A DNA stretch of 64,000 nt from NCBI GenBank assembly GCA_018672055.1, contig JABHGM010000001.1, positions 507,494-571,493 of the forward strand, in the 5' to 3' direction. Source of the stretch: a bacterium (GTDB lineage: Bacteria; Patescibacteriota; Patescibacteriia; UBA1558; UBA10009). The notes beneath the pieces were generated by a model that worked only from the letters and a program-made list of their open reading frames with translations, was not told where the DNA came from and did not search any database. Positions 15,212-56,451 of this stretch are shown piece by piece (within the stretch, counting starts at the first letter, position 1; every line of letters begins with the position of its first letter). The position numbers and the translations under genes were made by a program.

Positions 15212-15478
15212 TTAAGCCTTTGAAAAAGTTAATACTTTGCTTTTCCCTTCTTGCGACGAGTCCATAAATATTGTTATACCGTAATTGTGTAAATCAAAGT
15301 TCGTGAATCCTTCTTCTCTTTCAAGAGATACACCCTTAAGCTGTCGTGAGTTAATCAATACTTCGAAGAAGTTAGAAGCAGATTTAGGATCTCCTGATAA
15401 GCTACAATCGAATTTTATTGTAAAGATTTTATAATAACCTACCCATTGGTTATCAATTAATGTGAAAGTAACGTTCAT
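15212..15478 (-). CDS. hypothetical protein (orphan, antisense orientation inside heat-shock locus)
   Basis: 88-aa ORF from the track; only minus-strand gene in a 12-kb plus-strand block; no recognisable motif. Confidence 0.35.
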   Translation of the reverse strand: MNVTFTLIDNQWVGYYKIFTIKFDCSLSGDPKSASNFFEVLINSRQLKGVSLEREEGFTNFDLHNYGITIFMDSSQEGKSKVLTFSKA

Positions 15479-32895: not shown

Positions 32896-32967
32896 TCGGG
32901 GATCGTCTAATGGTAGGACACCAGGTTCTGGTCCTGGGAATCGGGGTTCAAATCCCTGTCCCCGAGC
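32896..32967 (+). tRNA. tRNA-Gln (anticodon CTG)
   Basis: Acceptor TCGGGGA/TCCCCGA, D-loop TAATGGTA, anticodon loop TTCTGGT, T-loop TTCAAAT, CCA at 32968-32970. Confidence 0.7.
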
Positions 32968-33012
32968 CATAACTTATTAAATATAAGTTATTTATTATAT
33001 TATGATATATTT

Positions 33013-35187: not shown

Positions 35188-35220
35188 AAAAAAGACCCCT
35201 GATAAGTTCAGGGGTTTTTA
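35186..35220. terminator. bidirectional rho-independent terminator
   Basis: AAAAAAAAG-ACCCCTGA-taagt-TCAGGGGT-TTTTT, shared by convergent genes. Confidence 0.8.
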
Positions 35221-35472
35221 GTAAATTGATCGTGTTTGAGTAATTCTAGAATTAGAGCTTAAGAAGTCTTCCGGCGGATTATAGTCATGAGTTAATAATC
35301 TATTTTGAGTTAAAGAATAAATTAATACTATTTTATTACCTTCTGAAGTCATAATTTCTAAAGCAGGATTATCTCGATTAGTTGTTTTCCTTATAATCCT
35401 ATAATATCTAGAAAATTTATCAACTAAATAATGATTTACTTCTGCTGATAGGAAGTCTTTTTTTGAAATCAT
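35218..35472 (-). CDS. hypothetical small protein (orphan, minus strand)
   Basis: 84-aa ORF; faint resemblance to RelE/YoeB-like C-terminus (IVLIYSL..RLLTHDY), not reliable. Confidence 0.3.
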   Translation of the reverse strand: MISKKDFLSAEVNHYLVDKFSRYYRIIRKTTNRDNPALEIMTSEGNKIVLIYSLTQNRLLTHDYNPPEDFLSSNSRITQTRSIY

Positions 35473-46421: not shown

Positions 46422-47654
46422 ATGAGACAATCAAAATTATTTGGAAAAACAATTAGAGAAGCTCCAAAAGATGAAGTATCAGCTAATGCTATTTTTTTAT
46501 CACGTGCTGGATATATAGATAAGTTAATTGCTGGAGTATATAATTATTTACCACTCGGTGTTAAAGTTTTAAGTAAGATACAAAACATTGTTAGAGAAGA
46601 AATGAATAAGATAGATGGTCAGGAAATATATTTATCTGCATTGCAACATAAAGAATTATGGGAAAAAACTGGTAGATGGCAGAGTATGAAAGAAATTATG
46701 TTTCAATTTGAAGGTAGAGGTAATCAAGAAATTGGTTTAGGTGCTACTCACGAAGAACCAATTACTAGTATGGTTAAAAAAAGAGTATCTTCATACCGTG
46801 ACTTACCTTTTTACTTGTATCAAATACAAGATAAGTTTAGAAACGAACCAAGAGCTAAATCTGGCTTATTAAGAGGTCGTGAATTTAATATGAAGGATCT
46901 ATATAGTTTTTGTGAGTCACAAGAAGATTTAAATAAATTTTATGATAGAGCTATTAAAGCATATTTAACTATCTTTGAGCGTTGTGGCTTAAAAGCTATT
47001 GTTACAGAAGCTTCAGGCGGTGATTTTTCTAAAGAATATTCTCATGAATTTCAGGTTTTAACTAAAAATGGTGAGGATAATATAGTAATATGTACTAAGT
47101 GTGATTTCGCTCAAAATTCTGAAATATGTAAATTAAAAGATGGTGATGAATGCCCTAAATGTAAAGCTAAAGTAAAACATGAAAAATCAATTGAAGTTGG
47201 TAATATATTTAAATTAGGTACTAAATTTTCACACGATCTAGGTTTAAAATTTAAAGATAAATCTGGTAAAGAGCAAGAGGTGATTATGGGAAGTTATGGT
47301 ATTGGTCCATCTCGTGTAATGGGTTCAGTTGCTGAGGTATATCATGATGAAAAAGGTTTGATTTGGCCAAAAAGCTTATCTCCATTTGCGATACATTTGC
47401 TTCTTTTATCAGAAGATGATAAGAAGAAACAAATAGCTGATAAATTATATGATGATTTAATAAAGCAGGGTATAGATATATTGTATGATGATAGAGAAGT
47501 TAGTGCTGGAGTTAAGTTAAATGATGCTGATTTAATAGGTGTATCATTACAATTAATAATAGGTGATAAAACTAAAGATAAAGTTGAATATAAGATAAGA
47601 GCGGGGAATAAAAAAGGAGAGGTTGATGAAAAAGATATTAAGAAATTATTATAA
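46422..47654 (+). CDS. proS: proline--tRNA ligase (minimal, no editing domain, Zn-ribbon insert)
   Basis: N-terminal RAGYI..GVYNYLPLG, motif 2 FRNEPRAKSGLLRGREF, motif 3, C-terminal anticodon-binding domain; insert CTKCDF...CPKCKAK. Confidence 0.8.
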   Translation: MRQSKLFGKTIREAPKDEVSANAIFLSRAGYIDKLIAGVYNYLPLGVKVLSKIQNIVREEMNKIDGQEIYLSALQHKELWEKTGRWQSMKEIMFQFEGRGNQEIGLGATHEEPITSMVKKRVSSYRDLPFYLYQIQDKFRNEPRAKSGLLRGREFNMKDLYSFCESQEDLNKFYDRAIKAYLTIFERCGLKAIVTEASGGDFSKEYSHEFQVLTKNGEDNIVICTKCDFAQNSEICKLKDGDECPKCKAKVKHEKSIEVGNIFKLGTKFSHDLGLKFKDKSGKEQEVIMGSYGIGPSRVMGSVAEVYHDEKGLIWPKSLSPFAIHLLLLSEDDKKKQIADKLYDDLIKQGIDILYDDREVSAGVKLNDADLIGVSLQLIIGDKTKDKVEYKIRAGNKKGEVDEKDIKKLL

Positions 47655-48697
47655 TGTTAAATAAGTTACTTGGAAAATTTAGTGCAGACGTAGGTATAGA
47701 TCTTGGAACATCTAATATTTTAGTTTATGTACGTGATAAAGGTATTGTAGTTAATGAACCATCAGTAGTGGCTATTAATACTCGTAATGATCAAATTATT
47801 GCTATTGGTGGAGAAGCTAAAAAAATGATAGGTAAAACACCAAGCCATATTACCGTAACTAGACCTCTTATAAATGGAGTTATTTCTGATTTTGAAGTTA
47901 CCGAGAAAATGATAAAACATTTTATTAATAAAATACATCAAGAACATTTTAATTTATTACCCAGACCACGTATTGTAATTGGTATACCTTTAGATGTTAC
48001 TGAAGTAGAGCGTAAAGCAGTTGAAGATGCTTGTAAATCTGGTGGAGCTCGTGAAGTTCACTTAGTTGAACATCCCATAGCAGCAGCTATTGGATCTAGA
48101 CTACCTATTCAAGAAGCTTCAGGTATTATAATAGTAGAGTGTGGTGCAGGTAATACAGAAATTGCTGTTATTTCTTTAGGTGGCGTAGTTACCTTTACTA
48201 CATTACCAATTGCTGGTAATGAACTTGATGAAAATATTATTCAATATGCTAGAGAGAATTTTAATTTACTTTTAGGTGAAAGAACAGCTGAAATGTTAAA
48301 AATTAAAATTGGTACTGTTTCATCAGATGTTGAAAAAGAAGAGACTACTTTAAGAGGTCGTGATTTAATGACAGGTCTACCTAAAGAAGTTACTATATCA
48401 AATCATCAAATTAGAGAAGCTATTTTAAAATCAGTTCGTCAAATAGTTGAAGCTGTTAGAGACACAATTGAAAAAACACCTCCTGAATTAGTTGTAGATA
48501 TTTATGAAAGAGGAATCTTATTAAGTGGTGGTACAGCTATGTTAAGAGGCTTAGATAAATTAATAGTTCAAGAAATTAAAATACCTGTTCATATAATTGA
48601 TGATCCCTTAACATCTGTAGTTAGAGGTACGGGTATAATTTTAGAAGATTTAGATAATTTAAAAGAAGTTTTAGTTCCGCCAACTTTCGATAATTAA
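47654..48697 (+). CDS. mreB: rod shape-determining protein MreB
   Basis: VGIDLGTSN, actin-fold phosphate motifs; followed by mreC and mreD. Confidence 0.9.
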   Translation: MLNKLLGKFSADVGIDLGTSNILVYVRDKGIVVNEPSVVAINTRNDQIIAIGGEAKKMIGKTPSHITVTRPLINGVISDFEVTEKMIKHFINKIHQEHFNLLPRPRIVIGIPLDVTEVERKAVEDACKSGGAREVHLVEHPIAAAIGSRLPIQEASGIIIVECGAGNTEIAVISLGGVVTFTTLPIAGNELDENIIQYARENFNLLLGERTAEMLKIKIGTVSSDVEKEETTLRGRDLMTGLPKEVTISNHQIREAILKSVRQIVEAVRDTIEKTPPELVVDIYERGILLSGGTAMLRGLDKLIVQEIKIPVHIIDDPLTSVVRGTGIILEDLDNLKEVLVPPTFDN

Positions 48698-52456: not shown

Positions 52457-53476
52457 ATGGCAATGTTTCCTAAAAAAATTGGAATAGATTTGGGTACTAC
52501 ATACACCTTAGTTCATTTACCTAAAAGAGGTATTATTATTAATGAACCCTCTGTAGTAGCTATCTCTGTGCTTGATAAAAAAGTTTTAGCTGTAGGTGAA
52601 GAAGCTAAAGAAATGTTAGGTCGTACACCTGATACTATAGTAGCTCAACGTCCACTTAGAGATGGAGTTATTGCTGATTACAAGACAACAGAGAGTATGC
52701 TTAGGTATTTTATAAATAAAGCAGTTAAAGGTGTTAAATTATTTAGACCTGAAGTTATGATTGCTGTACCTGCTGGTATTACTTCTACTGAAAGAAGAGC
52801 TGTTATTGATGCTACTATGTCAGCTGGAGCTAAGGCAGCCTATATTATTAAAGAACCAATTGCCGCAGCAATTGGTGCAGATATTCCAATTGGTTCAGCT
52901 TCTGGACATATGATAGTAGATATTGGTGGTGGTACAGCTGAAATTGCTGTTATCTCCTTAGGTGGTATTGTAGCTAATACTTCAATACGTATTGGAGGTA
53001 ATAAATTTGATACATCTATTGCTGAATTTATACGTAAAAAATATGGTTTAGCTATTGGTGAGAGAACTGCAGAAGATATTAAAATTAAAATAGGTTCAGC
53101 TATGTATTTAGATGATGATGAGAAGTTAAGCATGAAGATTAGAGGCAGAGATATGATATCTGGTTTACCACGTTCCATTGAGGTTAATTCAGATGATGTG
53201 ACTGAAGCCCTGCAAAATGAATTACAAGGAATAATAGCTGCTGTTAAATCTGTATTATTTAAAACGCCTCCTGAATTAAGCGCTGATGTTATGGATAAAG
53301 GAATGGTTTTAACTGGTGGTAGTTCTTTACTTAGAAATATTTCAGAACTTTTAACTCAAGCTACAGGAGTTCCTGCATATGTCGCTGATGATTCACTGTT
53401 ATGTGTAGCTAAAGGTACAGGTGTTGCTCTTGATAATCTTGATTCATATAAAAGAAGTATATTATCAACCAAGTAA
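52457..53476 (+). CDS. MreB/Mbl-family actin homolog (second paralog)
   Basis: IGIDLGTTYT, same fold as mreB at 47654 but divergent. Confidence 0.85.
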   Translation: MAMFPKKIGIDLGTTYTLVHLPKRGIIINEPSVVAISVLDKKVLAVGEEAKEMLGRTPDTIVAQRPLRDGVIADYKTTESMLRYFINKAVKGVKLFRPEVMIAVPAGITSTERRAVIDATMSAGAKAAYIIKEPIAAAIGADIPIGSASGHMIVDIGGGTAEIAVISLGGIVANTSIRIGGNKFDTSIAEFIRKKYGLAIGERTAEDIKIKIGSAMYLDDDEKLSMKIRGRDMISGLPRSIEVNSDDVTEALQNELQGIIAAVKSVLFKTPPELSADVMDKGMVLTGGSSLLRNISELLTQATGVPAYVADDSLLCVAKGTGVALDNLDSYKRSILSTK

Positions 53477-53477
53477 T

Positions 53478-54587
53478 ATGATTATTGGTATCGATGCATC
53501 ACGTGCAAATACAAAAGAGAGAAGTGGTGTAGAATGGTATGCTTTTCATTTAATACATAATTTAGCTAAAATTGATTCAAAAAATCAATATTTTTTATAC
53601 TCAAATAAGGAATTTAGAGATGATTTAAAAATAGATCAACCTAATTTTCATCTTAAGGTTTTAAAATGGCCATTTTCTAGGTTATGGACTCTAGGTAGAT
53701 TAACTCTTGAAATGATTTTTAAAAAAGTAGATGTATTAATAGTACCTTCACATACCCTGCCTTTAGTTGGAGCTCGTAAAAATATATTATCATGGCATGA
53801 TTTAGCCTATGAGCATTATCCAGAGGTATATACTAAGTCTCATTTAATGTCTCTTAAACAAGGTATAAAAAGAGGTATTAAAAAAGCTGACAAAATAATT
53901 ACAATATCTAATTTTACTCGTAATGAAATAGTAGAGAAATATAATTTAAGTTTAGACAGGATTGAAGTAACTTACATGGGTATAGATCATAAGTTATGGA
54001 AAAAACAAGATGAAAAGAAAGTAAAGAATTATTTAAGAGAAAATAACTTTAACTTACCTTACTTTGTATATTTAGGAAGATTAACAGCTAAAAAAAATGT
54101 ACCTGGCTTAATAGAAGCATATAATATATTTAGAAAACAAATAGCTAGGCCTCATAACCTTTATTTAATAGGTTTCAAAGGTTTTGATTTTAAATTAATC
54201 GAAAAAGCAATAAGTAGCTCTCCATATTCAAATGAAATTAAAGTACTAGGCTATACTCCTTCTAAAGAATTACCAATTATTTTTGCAGGAGCTGAAGCTC
54301 TAGTATTTCCATCATTTTATGAAGGTTTTGGTATTCCAGTAATTGAAGCTATGGCTTCTGGCTGTCCGGTTATAACAAGTAATTTAACAGCTTTACCTGA
54401 AGTAGTGGCTGGTAGTGGTATTTTAGTAGATCCGAGAAATAAAGAAGATATAGCCAAAGCTATGGAAAAAATTGTTAGTGATAATAATTTTAAAGAAGAA
54501 TTAAGATTAAAAGGGTTAAGTAGAGCTAAAGAATTTACTTGGCTCAAATGTGCTAAAAAAACATTAGAAATTATAGAAAATATATAA
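53478..54587 (+). CDS. glycosyltransferase family 4 (GT-B, GT1 superfamily)
   Basis: Start moved to MIIGID (53478) after the upstream stop; C-terminal EGFGIPVIEAMASGCPVITS motif. Confidence 0.8.
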   Translation: MIIGIDASRANTKERSGVEWYAFHLIHNLAKIDSKNQYFLYSNKEFRDDLKIDQPNFHLKVLKWPFSRLWTLGRLTLEMIFKKVDVLIVPSHTLPLVGARKNILSWHDLAYEHYPEVYTKSHLMSLKQGIKRGIKKADKIITISNFTRNEIVEKYNLSLDRIEVTYMGIDHKLWKKQDEKKVKNYLRENNFNLPYFVYLGRLTAKKNVPGLIEAYNIFRKQIARPHNLYLIGFKGFDFKLIEKAISSSPYSNEIKVLGYTPSKELPIIFAGAEALVFPSFYEGFGIPVIEAMASGCPVITSNLTALPEVVAGSGILVDPRNKEDIAKAMEKIVSDNNFKEELRLKGLSRAKEFTWLKCAKKTLEIIENI

Positions 54588-54589
54588 TT

Positions 54590-54620
54590 AAAAAAGATGA
54601 ATAAATTATTCATCTTTTTT
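54590..54620. terminator. bidirectional rho-independent terminator (GT4 gene on plus strand, rnpB on minus strand)
   Basis: AAAAAA-GATGAATA-aat-TATTCATC-TTTTTT. Confidence 0.8.
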
Positions 54621-54988
54621 AATACTCATTTAAGTTAATAAGCCGAATTCTGTATAACAGTGATCATCTATCTAGTCCATTTGTTGCCAAATGGATCAAG
54701 CTCTCAACCCGCTACTTAAAGTAGCCTACTTGAGATTGCACCGAATAGAAGTTTACCTCTTTTCCATCATCACTGAATGGAACGGGTTAGATCGTACTCT
54801 AACCTTTTCACCCATAATTTGTGAAGGGTATACCCGTGTCTCACAAATAGGAATATTTTCTGCTGCACTTGTCCTACTTAAGTATTCACATACCCAAGCG
54901 GTTGGTGTTACCAACTATTACTAAGATTGGTGTTCGGACTTTCCTCTACATAAATTAATATGTAGCGATCACTTAAACTTAAATGAGC
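54621..54988 (-). ncRNA. rnpB: RNase P RNA (bacterial type A-like)
   Basis: Minus strand: P1 CUCAUUUAAGUU pairs with AACUUAAAUGAG; P2 GUGAUC/GAUCAC; P3 hairpin CUACAUA-UUAAUU-UAUGUAG; P4 5' AGAGGAAAGUCCGAACACC; GGGUGAAAAGGUUAGAGUACGAUCUAACC (P10.1/P11 GGGUGAAA motif); 3' ACAGAAUUCGGCUUAU (P4 3' strand); local GC above background. Confidence 0.85.
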
Positions 54989-54995
54989 ATCTAGT

Positions 54996-55024
54996 AATAT
55001 ATCATATATAATGTATTTTGTCAA
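54996..55024 (-). promoter_or_regulatory. rnpB promoter
   Basis: Minus strand: -35 TTGACA, 17-nt spacer, -10 TATATT, 7 nt to the predicted G +1 of mature rnpB. Confidence 0.7.
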
Positions 55025-55071
55025 TGTTTAGTATTGTGTTAAAATAAGTTAAAATCTGTTATTATACTAAT

Positions 55072-56451
55072 ATGAAAAAGCTTGAATTAATATTTGCTGC
55101 TATATTAGTACCATTTGATTATTTGGTACTTCTTTTATCAGGTACTTTAGCCTATTTTTTAAGATTTGAATCATTTGTTACTGAAATAAGGCCTGTTGTA
55201 TTTACTATGTCATATAGTGATTTTTTTAATGTTTTAACCATTGCTTCACTTGCTTGGATTGTGGTATTTGCTATGTCAGGATTATATACTATTGAAAGAA
55301 GAAGTTTACTTAAAAATGTTACTAAAATAATAATTGCTTGTTCAGCTGCTACTTTAATAATTGTAGTAGCTTTTTTCTTTAACTTTCAACTATTTAATTC
55401 AAGACTTATTATTTTAACTGGTTGGATATTATCAATATTTTTTATCTCCATTGATAGAATATTAATTCATTATGTTAAAAAGATATTCTATAAAAAAGGT
55501 ATCGGTGTTAGGCAAGTAGTAATAATTGGTGAGGGTAGTAATGCACACGAGATTATAAATGAGTTTAATAGTAAACCTAGTTATGGTTTTAAAATAGTAA
55601 AGCACTTTAATCATTTTAATGAATTAGAATTAAAAGAACTAATTAAAAATAATAATATTGATGATTTAATATTAGCCGGTAGTGAATTAACCGAAGATGA
55701 GAAGAATAAGGTAGTTAATTTGTGTTTAGATAATAATTTAACATATAAGTTCGTAGCTTCTTTGTTAGAGACTAAAATAAGTAATTTTAAATTTAGTACT
55801 ATTGCTGGAGTACCAGTAATTGAAGTTGGACATACTCGTTTAGATGGTTGGGGTAGGATAATAAAAAGAATATTTGATTTTATAATGTCTTTAATTATTT
55901 TTATTATACTACTTCCTTTTTTAATACTAATTGGTCTTATAATAATATTTACTTCTCGTGGTCCAATGATTGTTAGATTATTAAGAATAGGGGATAATGG
56001 AGAGAAGTTTAAAATGTATAAATTTAGATCTATGGTTAAGGATGCTCATAAAATGAAACAAGATTTAACTGATTTTAATGAAAGAGCTGATGGTCCTTTA
56101 TTCAAAATGCATGATGATCCTAGAATAACAAAGTTTGGTAAATTTATTCGTAAGTATAGCTTAGATGAATTACCTCAACTGATTAACGTAATACGCGGAC
56201 AAATGAGTTTAGTTGGTCCACGCCCTCATGAACCACAGGAAGTAGAGAAGTATGAGGTTAAAGATAAGAAGTTACTGGCTATAAAACCTGGAATTACTGG
56301 CATGGCACAAGTATCAGGTAGAAGTGATTTAGATTGGCAGCAAGAAGTAAGACTTGATACATATTATGTTGAGAATTGGAGTTTAGGACTTGATATACAA
56401 ATAATATTAAAAACACCTAGGGCTGTTTTAGGAAAAAGAAAGGCTGTATGA
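55072..56451 (+). CDS. polyprenyl-phosphate glycosyl-1-phosphate transferase (WbaP/PglB-type priming sugar transferase)
   Basis: 4 N-terminal TM, Rossmann-like linker, C-terminal bacterial sugar-transferase domain (KFRSM ... DELPQLINVIRGQMSLVGPRP). Confidence 0.85.
   Translation: MKKLELIFAAILVPFDYLVLLLSGTLAYFLRFESFVTEIRPVVFTMSYSDFFNVLTIASLAWIVVFAMSGLYTIERRSLLKNVTKIIIACSAATLIIVVAFFFNFQLFNSRLIILTGWILSIFFISIDRILIHYVKKIFYKKGIGVRQVVIIGEGSNAHEIINEFNSKPSYGFKIVKHFNHFNELELKELIKNNNIDDLILAGSELTEDEKNKVVNLCLDNNLTYKFVASLLETKISNFKFSTIAGVPVIEVGHTRLDGWGRIIKRIFDFIMSLIIFIILLPFLILIGLIIIFTSRGPMIVRLLRIGDNGEKFKMYKFRSMVKDAHKMKQDLTDFNERADGPLFKMHDDPRITKFGKFIRKYSLDELPQLINVIRGQMSLVGPRPHEPQEVEKYEVKDKKLLAIKPGITGMAQVSGRSDLDWQQEVRLDTYYVENWSLGLDIQIILKTPRAVLGKRKAV

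Follow-up and report, generated by a model that had tools for sequence, protein, structure and literature searches.

The window, by which we mean the whole 64-kb stretch of DNA that was analysed, carries a gene read here as rnpB on its minus strand, set between the gene of a GT4-family glycosyltransferase and that of a WbaP-type polyprenyl-phosphate sugar transferase (Table 1). RNase P, a universally occurring enzyme, trims the precursors of tRNAs, and rnpB encodes its RNA subunit. A second GT4 gene follows beyond WbaP, while genes for PBP2, GreA and MreB lie upstream and pentose-phosphate genes downstream. The Pfam families of the flanking genes confirmed the glycan-gene setting that a preliminary description of this DNA had given for rnpB. 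As nearly all genes of the window lie on the plus strand, rnpB opposes the general gene direction. The WbaP protein occurs in identical form on one ENA metagenome contig and is listed in 131 collection blocks, and the closest named genomes are those of Candidatus Komeilibacteria and MAGs labelled 'Patescibacteria group', with 63–70% WbaP identity. The window thus comes from a low-G+C bacterium of the Patescibacteria (CPR) with a small genome.

Some features of the wider neighbourhood deserve mention in their own right. The mechanical list of open reading frames (ORFs) extends the frame of the glycosyltransferase to a GTG at 53421, overlapping the end of mreB. Two MreB paralogues (47654-48697 and 52457-53476) bracket mreC, a 169-aa ORF, PBP2 and greA, and the second of them is ~90% identical across the clade, compared with 35–60% for the neighbouring proteins. 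Elsewhere, two minus-strand ORFs (15212-15478, 88 aa; 35218-35472, 84 aa) are the sole candidates in two gaps of ~370 nt within an otherwise plus-strand gene array, and neither gap has an Rfam match.

Table 1. Positions of rnpB, its structural elements and the adjoining features, numbered along the window.
Feature	Position	Strand	Remarks
GT4-family glycosyltransferase gene	53478..54587	+	369 aa; convergent with rnpB; ATG 53478 in ENA and JGI
Palindrome, 18+18 nt, ATTAAAAAAGATGAATAA-A-TTATTCATCTTTTTTAAT	54587..54623	both	100% complementary; A6 and T6 runs
rnpB, class A, ~365 nt	54621..54988	-	assigned from Rfam match, fold z and covariation in 8 orthologues
P1, GCUCAUUUAAGUU with AACUUAAAUGAGU	54988-54976 with 54636-54624	-	inverted repeat
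P4 5' motif, GAGGAAAGUCCGAAC / GAGGAAAGUCCGAA	54946-54932 / 54933..54946	-	universally conserved
P4 5' strand	A54941-A54933	-	U54938 bulged; all 8 pairs formed, without variation in the clade
GGGUGAAA	54813-54806	-	conserved joining region 3' of P12 (J11/12-J12/13 area)
GGU motif, P15/P16 internal loop	54709-54707 (CGGGUU 54711-54706)	-	aligned to consensus CGGGUa
P4 3' motif, ACAGAAUUCGGCUUAU / ACAGAAUUCGGCUU	about 54653-54638 / 54640..54653	-	P4 3' strand, U54647-U54640
77-aa ORF antisense to rnpB	54691..54924	+	no family; frame not conserved
Predicted rnpB promoter, TTGACA-17-TATATT with TG	55024-54996	-	11/12 matches; best site of the region
Promoter parts	-35 55024-55019; TG 55004-55003; -10 TATATT 55001-54996	-	extended -10 (TTGACA-17-TGnTATATT)
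WbaP-type sugar transferase gene (Bac_transf)	55072..56451	+	divergent from rnpB

The preliminary description had called an RNase P RNA on the minus strand and proposed a search with Rfam models as a check. When the whole window was scanned with Rfam 15, 54985-54623 (minus strand) matched RF00010, the family of bacterial class A RNase P RNAs, with 201.8 bits (E 6.7e-64) against a curated gathering threshold of 100 bits. The alignment is untruncated and runs end to end over model positions 1–367 of 367, and this full-length match, together with the covariation described below, bears out the original call. The region between the GT4 and WbaP genes was also rightly described as raised in G+C content, which is 0.378 in the RNA compared with 0.288 in the window and 0.25–0.29 in the flanks, with a local profile maximum of 0.387. 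Folded as a single sequence, the RNA reaches a z of -6.5 against dinucleotide shuffles. Orthologues occur at the same locus in all seven related genomes (153–225 bits with Rfam) and in further metagenome loci. A more permissive Rfam scan, at E ≤ 0.1, found neither a second rnpB nor any other non-coding RNA within the 64-kb window besides rnpB and five tRNAs, and a scan for the RNR motif yielded no credible rnpA ORF in the window, its only match being an RNR-like motif in a stop-filled frame. Both searches, for a second copy and for rnpA, cover 64 kb, whereas the genome measures at least 525 kb.

All of the sequence motifs named in the preliminary description were found on the minus strand, and its expectation that P1–P4 would fold holds, the long-range helix P4 forming in 8/8 orthologues. 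P1 is made by an inverted repeat of 15 nt that is 93% complementary, with arms 339 nt apart, and it reaches beyond the Rfam match, G54988 being paired with U54624. For the eight RNAs, RNAalifold predicted 104 pairs, 73 of them compensatory with both sides changed. The structure that was put to the test consisted of this model minus one spurious local hairpin and plus P4 as a pseudoknot. It comprises 109 pairs, of which 74 show double changes, and 94.9% of the cells across the eight orthologues are paired. None of 500 column shuffles reached the observed pairing, and sliding the partners by 1–3 columns lowered it to 30–44%. Helices 1–3 and 5–9 of this structure, which cover P1–P3, P5 and P7–P12, are 86–100% paired with most pairs doubly changed, and helices 10, 11 and 15 contain 7, 8 and 6 covarying pairs, respectively. 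Such compensatory evolution in the relatives points to purifying selection on the structure.

Compared with RF00010, the family of E. coli M1 RNA (rnpB) and the RNase P RNA of Thermotoga maritima, the window RNA shares the full-length match, P1–P5, P7–P16 and P18, the P4 pseudoknot with its bulged U, GAGGAAAGUCCG and ACAGAAnnCGGCUUA, and the GGU motif. P16 is reduced to a short hairpin, and the class A helices P13 (GGUUAG.../...CUAACC), P14 (GUGA loop) and P18 (GCAA loop) are all present; GNRA-type loops on P9, P14 and P18 are likewise held in common. The fold is the canonical one of class A, with P4 as the long-range helix of the active-site core. Its inner end is A-U/A-U in the window RNA and G-C/G-C in the consensus, the change of GG to AA being matched by one of CC to UU. 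Further, the window RNA is compact and A+U-rich (38% G+C), and lacks P17, P6 and the optional P19. P17 (model positions ~245–262) is deleted and P16 closes in a small hairpin, as in all eight orthologues. Because P17 is absent, so is the P6 pseudoknot. The P15-P16-P17 arm with P6 is common but variable among class A RNAs and does not define the family. The preliminary description had proposed folding the pseudoknot as a check: that of P4 is found, and the other one of class A RNAs, P6 (with P17), is missing. Whether J5/7 and the P16 loop might form a P6-like pairing was considered, and the idea was rejected by eye, as the loop nucleotides are used in the hairpin stem. Close relatives carry a clade-specific extra helix between the P2 and P4 3' strands, some together with a J5/7 hairpin, and the window RNA is without both.

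In class A RNase P RNAs, the GGU motif pairs with the 3' CCA of the pre-tRNA. The motif is invariant in 8/8 orthologues (alignment columns G280, G281 and T282). All five tRNA genes of the window (Thr-GGU, Tyr, Thr-UGU, Trp and Gln; 9-948 and 32896-32969) encode the 3' CCA, which fits the retention of the GGU motif; the motif would pair with the CCA encoded in the tRNA genes of the host. Judging from the family to which it belongs, the RNA would remove the 5' leaders of pre-tRNAs together with an RnpA protein. The rnpB gene here is a standard housekeeping gene of an already known kind, found by any Rfam scan.

In a literature search on rnpB in Patescibacteria, the survey of CPR genomes by Lui, Nielsen and Arkin (2021, PMC8172020) was the only relevant study to emerge. 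It reports 10 of 35 CPR rnpB genes below the Rfam thresholds and 23 of 35 without the UGG/GGU motif, describes some CPR RNAs without P12–P14 or P18, and calls the loss of P13/P14/P16/P17 'not unusual' in CPR and other bacteria (PMC8172020). The window RNA comes from the same superphylum and shows the same tendency to shed peripheral helices. In contrast to many of the published cases, however, its score is double the gathering threshold, and P12, P13, P14, P18 and the GGU motif are all retained, which makes it a conservative CPR example. The CCA encoded by the tRNA genes of the window similarly contrasts with the CPR trend (PMC8172020). The window RNA may therefore be useful as a conservative CPR case, combining a GGU motif with CCA-encoding tRNA genes, features that are often missing in published CPR genomes. 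Class B RNAs (RF00011, the Bacillota type) belong to the same clan, CL00002, and have the same catalytic core. Class A was the best clan member and no class B match was reported, lower-scoring overlaps within the clan being suppressed; the window RNA has the class A form P13/P14 and P18 rather than the P5.1/P10.1/P15.1 of class B.

rnpB appears to form a stand-alone transcription unit. An extended -10 promoter of the sigma-70 type would start the RNA at, or within one base of, G54988, the nucleotide that opens P1 and the mature 5' end. The predicted start, T54989 or G54988, is the 7th or 8th base past the -10 element. The preliminary description had a consensus promoter place +1 exactly at the mature 5' G; the promoter stands, with G54988 as the 8th base past its -10, but 'exactly' was slightly too strong. 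In most of 13 related loci, with rnpB in either orientation, the motif TTGAC[AT]-17-TGnTAnnnT is followed by 8–10 nt to the start of the Rfam model (L007 and L009 were judged by eye), a spacing that puts the P1-opening purine 7–9 nt past the -10. With its stand-alone organization and a predicted start that coincides with the mature 5' end, the window gene resembles rnpB of E. coli, where the transcription start is likewise the mature 5' end.

At the other end, transcription of rnpB is predicted to stop at the A6-hairpin-T6 palindrome, which would also end the convergent glycosyltransferase gene and leave a 3' trailer of ~30 nt on the RNA, presumably trimmed. The palindrome occupies the entire 37-nt gap from the GT4 stop codon (54585-54587) to the 3' end of the RNA, and its hairpin has a free energy of -16.2 kcal/mol (z = -4.3). 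It plausibly acts as a bidirectional intrinsic terminator common to both genes. A shared terminator had been claimed in the preliminary description, and the perfect palindrome agrees with that claim. A consensus terminator scan that required at least three G-C pairs returned no sites; it missed the palindrome because the stem has only two. A symmetric A-run, hairpin and T-run beside the GT4 stop is also seen, among the other loci read in which rnpB is opposite to wbaP, in four (L003, L004, L008 and L076), and only in weak form in L007.

The upstream region of wbaP offers observations of a separate kind. A plus-strand promoter-like site (TTGTCA-16-TAAAAT with TG, 55018-55045, 10/12 matches) faces wbaP, and its -35 hexamer lies on the same bases as that of the rnpB promoter, so that the two sites stand back to back. 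There is no evident Shine-Dalgarno-like sequence in front of the wbaP ATG at 55072. Several relatives have a TATTAT or TATGAT box only 6–7 nt before the wbaP ATG, and the mRNA might be leaderless there.

One alternative is that the locus encodes the 77-aa protein of the plus strand and that the likeness to an RNase P RNA is incidental. The ORF does exist and is called a gene on five JGI contigs. When the region was shuffled 2000 times, a frame of at least 77 aa arose in only 74 cases (3.7%), which is unusual though not remarkable. Against a protein stand the lack of any Pfam match, a protein cluster of just three near-identical members and the ENA gene call, which leaves the gap between GT4 and WbaP empty. 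At the orthologous loci the longest antisense ORF measures anywhere between 37 and 126 aa, which means that the antisense reading frame is not conserved; substitutions among the orthologues keep the base pairs of the RNA and not the reading frame, and both the promoter and the T-run point in the direction of the minus strand. We give this alternative next to no credence, and the frame is best read as a chance ORF antisense to rnpB, as the preliminary description, which called it an artefact, had proposed. Its statement that rnpB is masked by this frame is true for some annotations, since JGI/IMG gene calls list the 77-aa ORF as a gene between GT4 and WbaP on at least three metagenome contigs. 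Placing a spurious protein over rnpB in this way is an annotation error, minor yet genuine, and it enters protein databases.

A second alternative accepts the RNA and holds it to be a decaying or redundant pseudogene, with the functional RNase P, whether made of RNA or protein-only, lying elsewhere in the genome. The examined stretch is indeed 64 kb of that genome, and P17/P6 and P19 are missing. However, all elements of the catalytic core are intact, a strong promoter precedes the gene, its relatives show strong compensatory evolution, and 52 of 54 related loci have the gene at the orthologous position. Further, CPR genomes usually have one rnpB each (PMC8172020). A pseudogene is thus very improbable. 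Collectively, we consider it close to certain that 54988-54621 on the minus strand is a class A rnpB, a reading made from sequence that takes in the transcription, fold and function proposed above as well as the chance nature of the antisense ORF.

The position of this rnpB is fixed across the clade while its strand is not. Related loci comprised seven genome loci and 51 more from a metagenome scan with an N-terminal WbaP alignment; in the metagenome loci rnpB was located with an nhmmer profile of the eight-RNA alignment, and some were verified with Rfam. Where enough upstream DNA was available, rnpB lay immediately upstream of the wbaP-like gene in all but two loci (52/54), mostly at a spacing of 21–430 nt (up to 829) and with WbaP identity down to ~30%. 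The order PBP2-GreA-MreB-GT4-[rnpB]-WbaP-GT4 is collinear in all seven genome loci. In three of them rnpB shares the strand of WbaP; in the other four, as in the window, it lies on the opposite one. In total, 35 loci have the plus orientation (the wbaP strand) and 18, the window counted, the minus orientation.

When loci with opposite orientations were compared by pairwise blastn, the flanks were collinear and the cassette inverted in every pair. For instance, L062 and L076 carry rnpB in opposite orientations between flanks that are 79–82% identical. At least six non-overlapping sister-pair contrasts differ in rnpB orientation, and on a rough neighbour-joining tree of the 260-aa N-terminal domain of WbaP, Fitch parsimony requires a minimum of 10 orientation changes from a plus-orientation root. 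Between the opposite-orientation sisters L004 (TTGACTAATTTGTTAATATCTGTTATGAT) and L005 (TTGACAATTTGTTTAATATCTGTTATTAT) the promoters are homologous, which indicates that the promoter moves with the gene. Recombination at P1 alone was rejected as the cause of the flips: it would be insufficient, because the homologous promoter had moved too. A conserved flanking inverted repeat was not found in eight loci, where only P1 (13–15 nt) consistently spans the gene. Within the species of the window there was no inversion among five JGI contigs, all of which (5/5) share the window orientation when the 77-aa ORF is taken as a strand marker; in so small a sample, rare variants could have been missed.

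The repeated in-place inversion of the promoter-gene-terminator cassette is, in our view, a genuine pattern of evolution, if a modestly interesting one. It is doubtful that some specific mechanism acting recurrently, or selection that alternates, lies behind the flips instead of rare neutral micro-inversions. Were there such a mechanism, the symmetric terminator and the back-to-back promoter sequences would be candidate sites for it, through recombination or template switching; selection, for its part, might act on whether a highly expressed RNA gene is transcribed head-on or co-directionally. What this locus adds beyond the known is a mistake in public gene calls and, within a CPR clade, the recurrent inversion of an rnpB cassette, and its sole research value lies in the inversions. 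A gene with a fixed position and a flipping strand across a clade could provide a small, naturally occurring dataset for the study of single-gene inversions. The same dataset could inform on the tolerance of transcription orientation in reduced genomes.

Two of the related loci show further peculiarities around the cassette. In L076, a minus-orientation locus, the 11-nt direct repeat AGGGAATAAAT occurs twice (in 2395-2462 and 2842-2900), one copy at the GT4 3' end and the other across the inverted cassette, in the spacer of the rnpB promoter. The repeat may be a duplication made at a breakpoint or simply due to chance, and it has no equivalent in the window. In L003, an extra ORF of ~260 aa (L003:4568-5403, MKLITLNIWGG... 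to ...SDHSALFTEFN) lies between the GT4 gene and rnpB. By eye it resembles the endonuclease/exonuclease/phosphatase family, and its presence suggests that the slot tolerates insertions as well as inversions.
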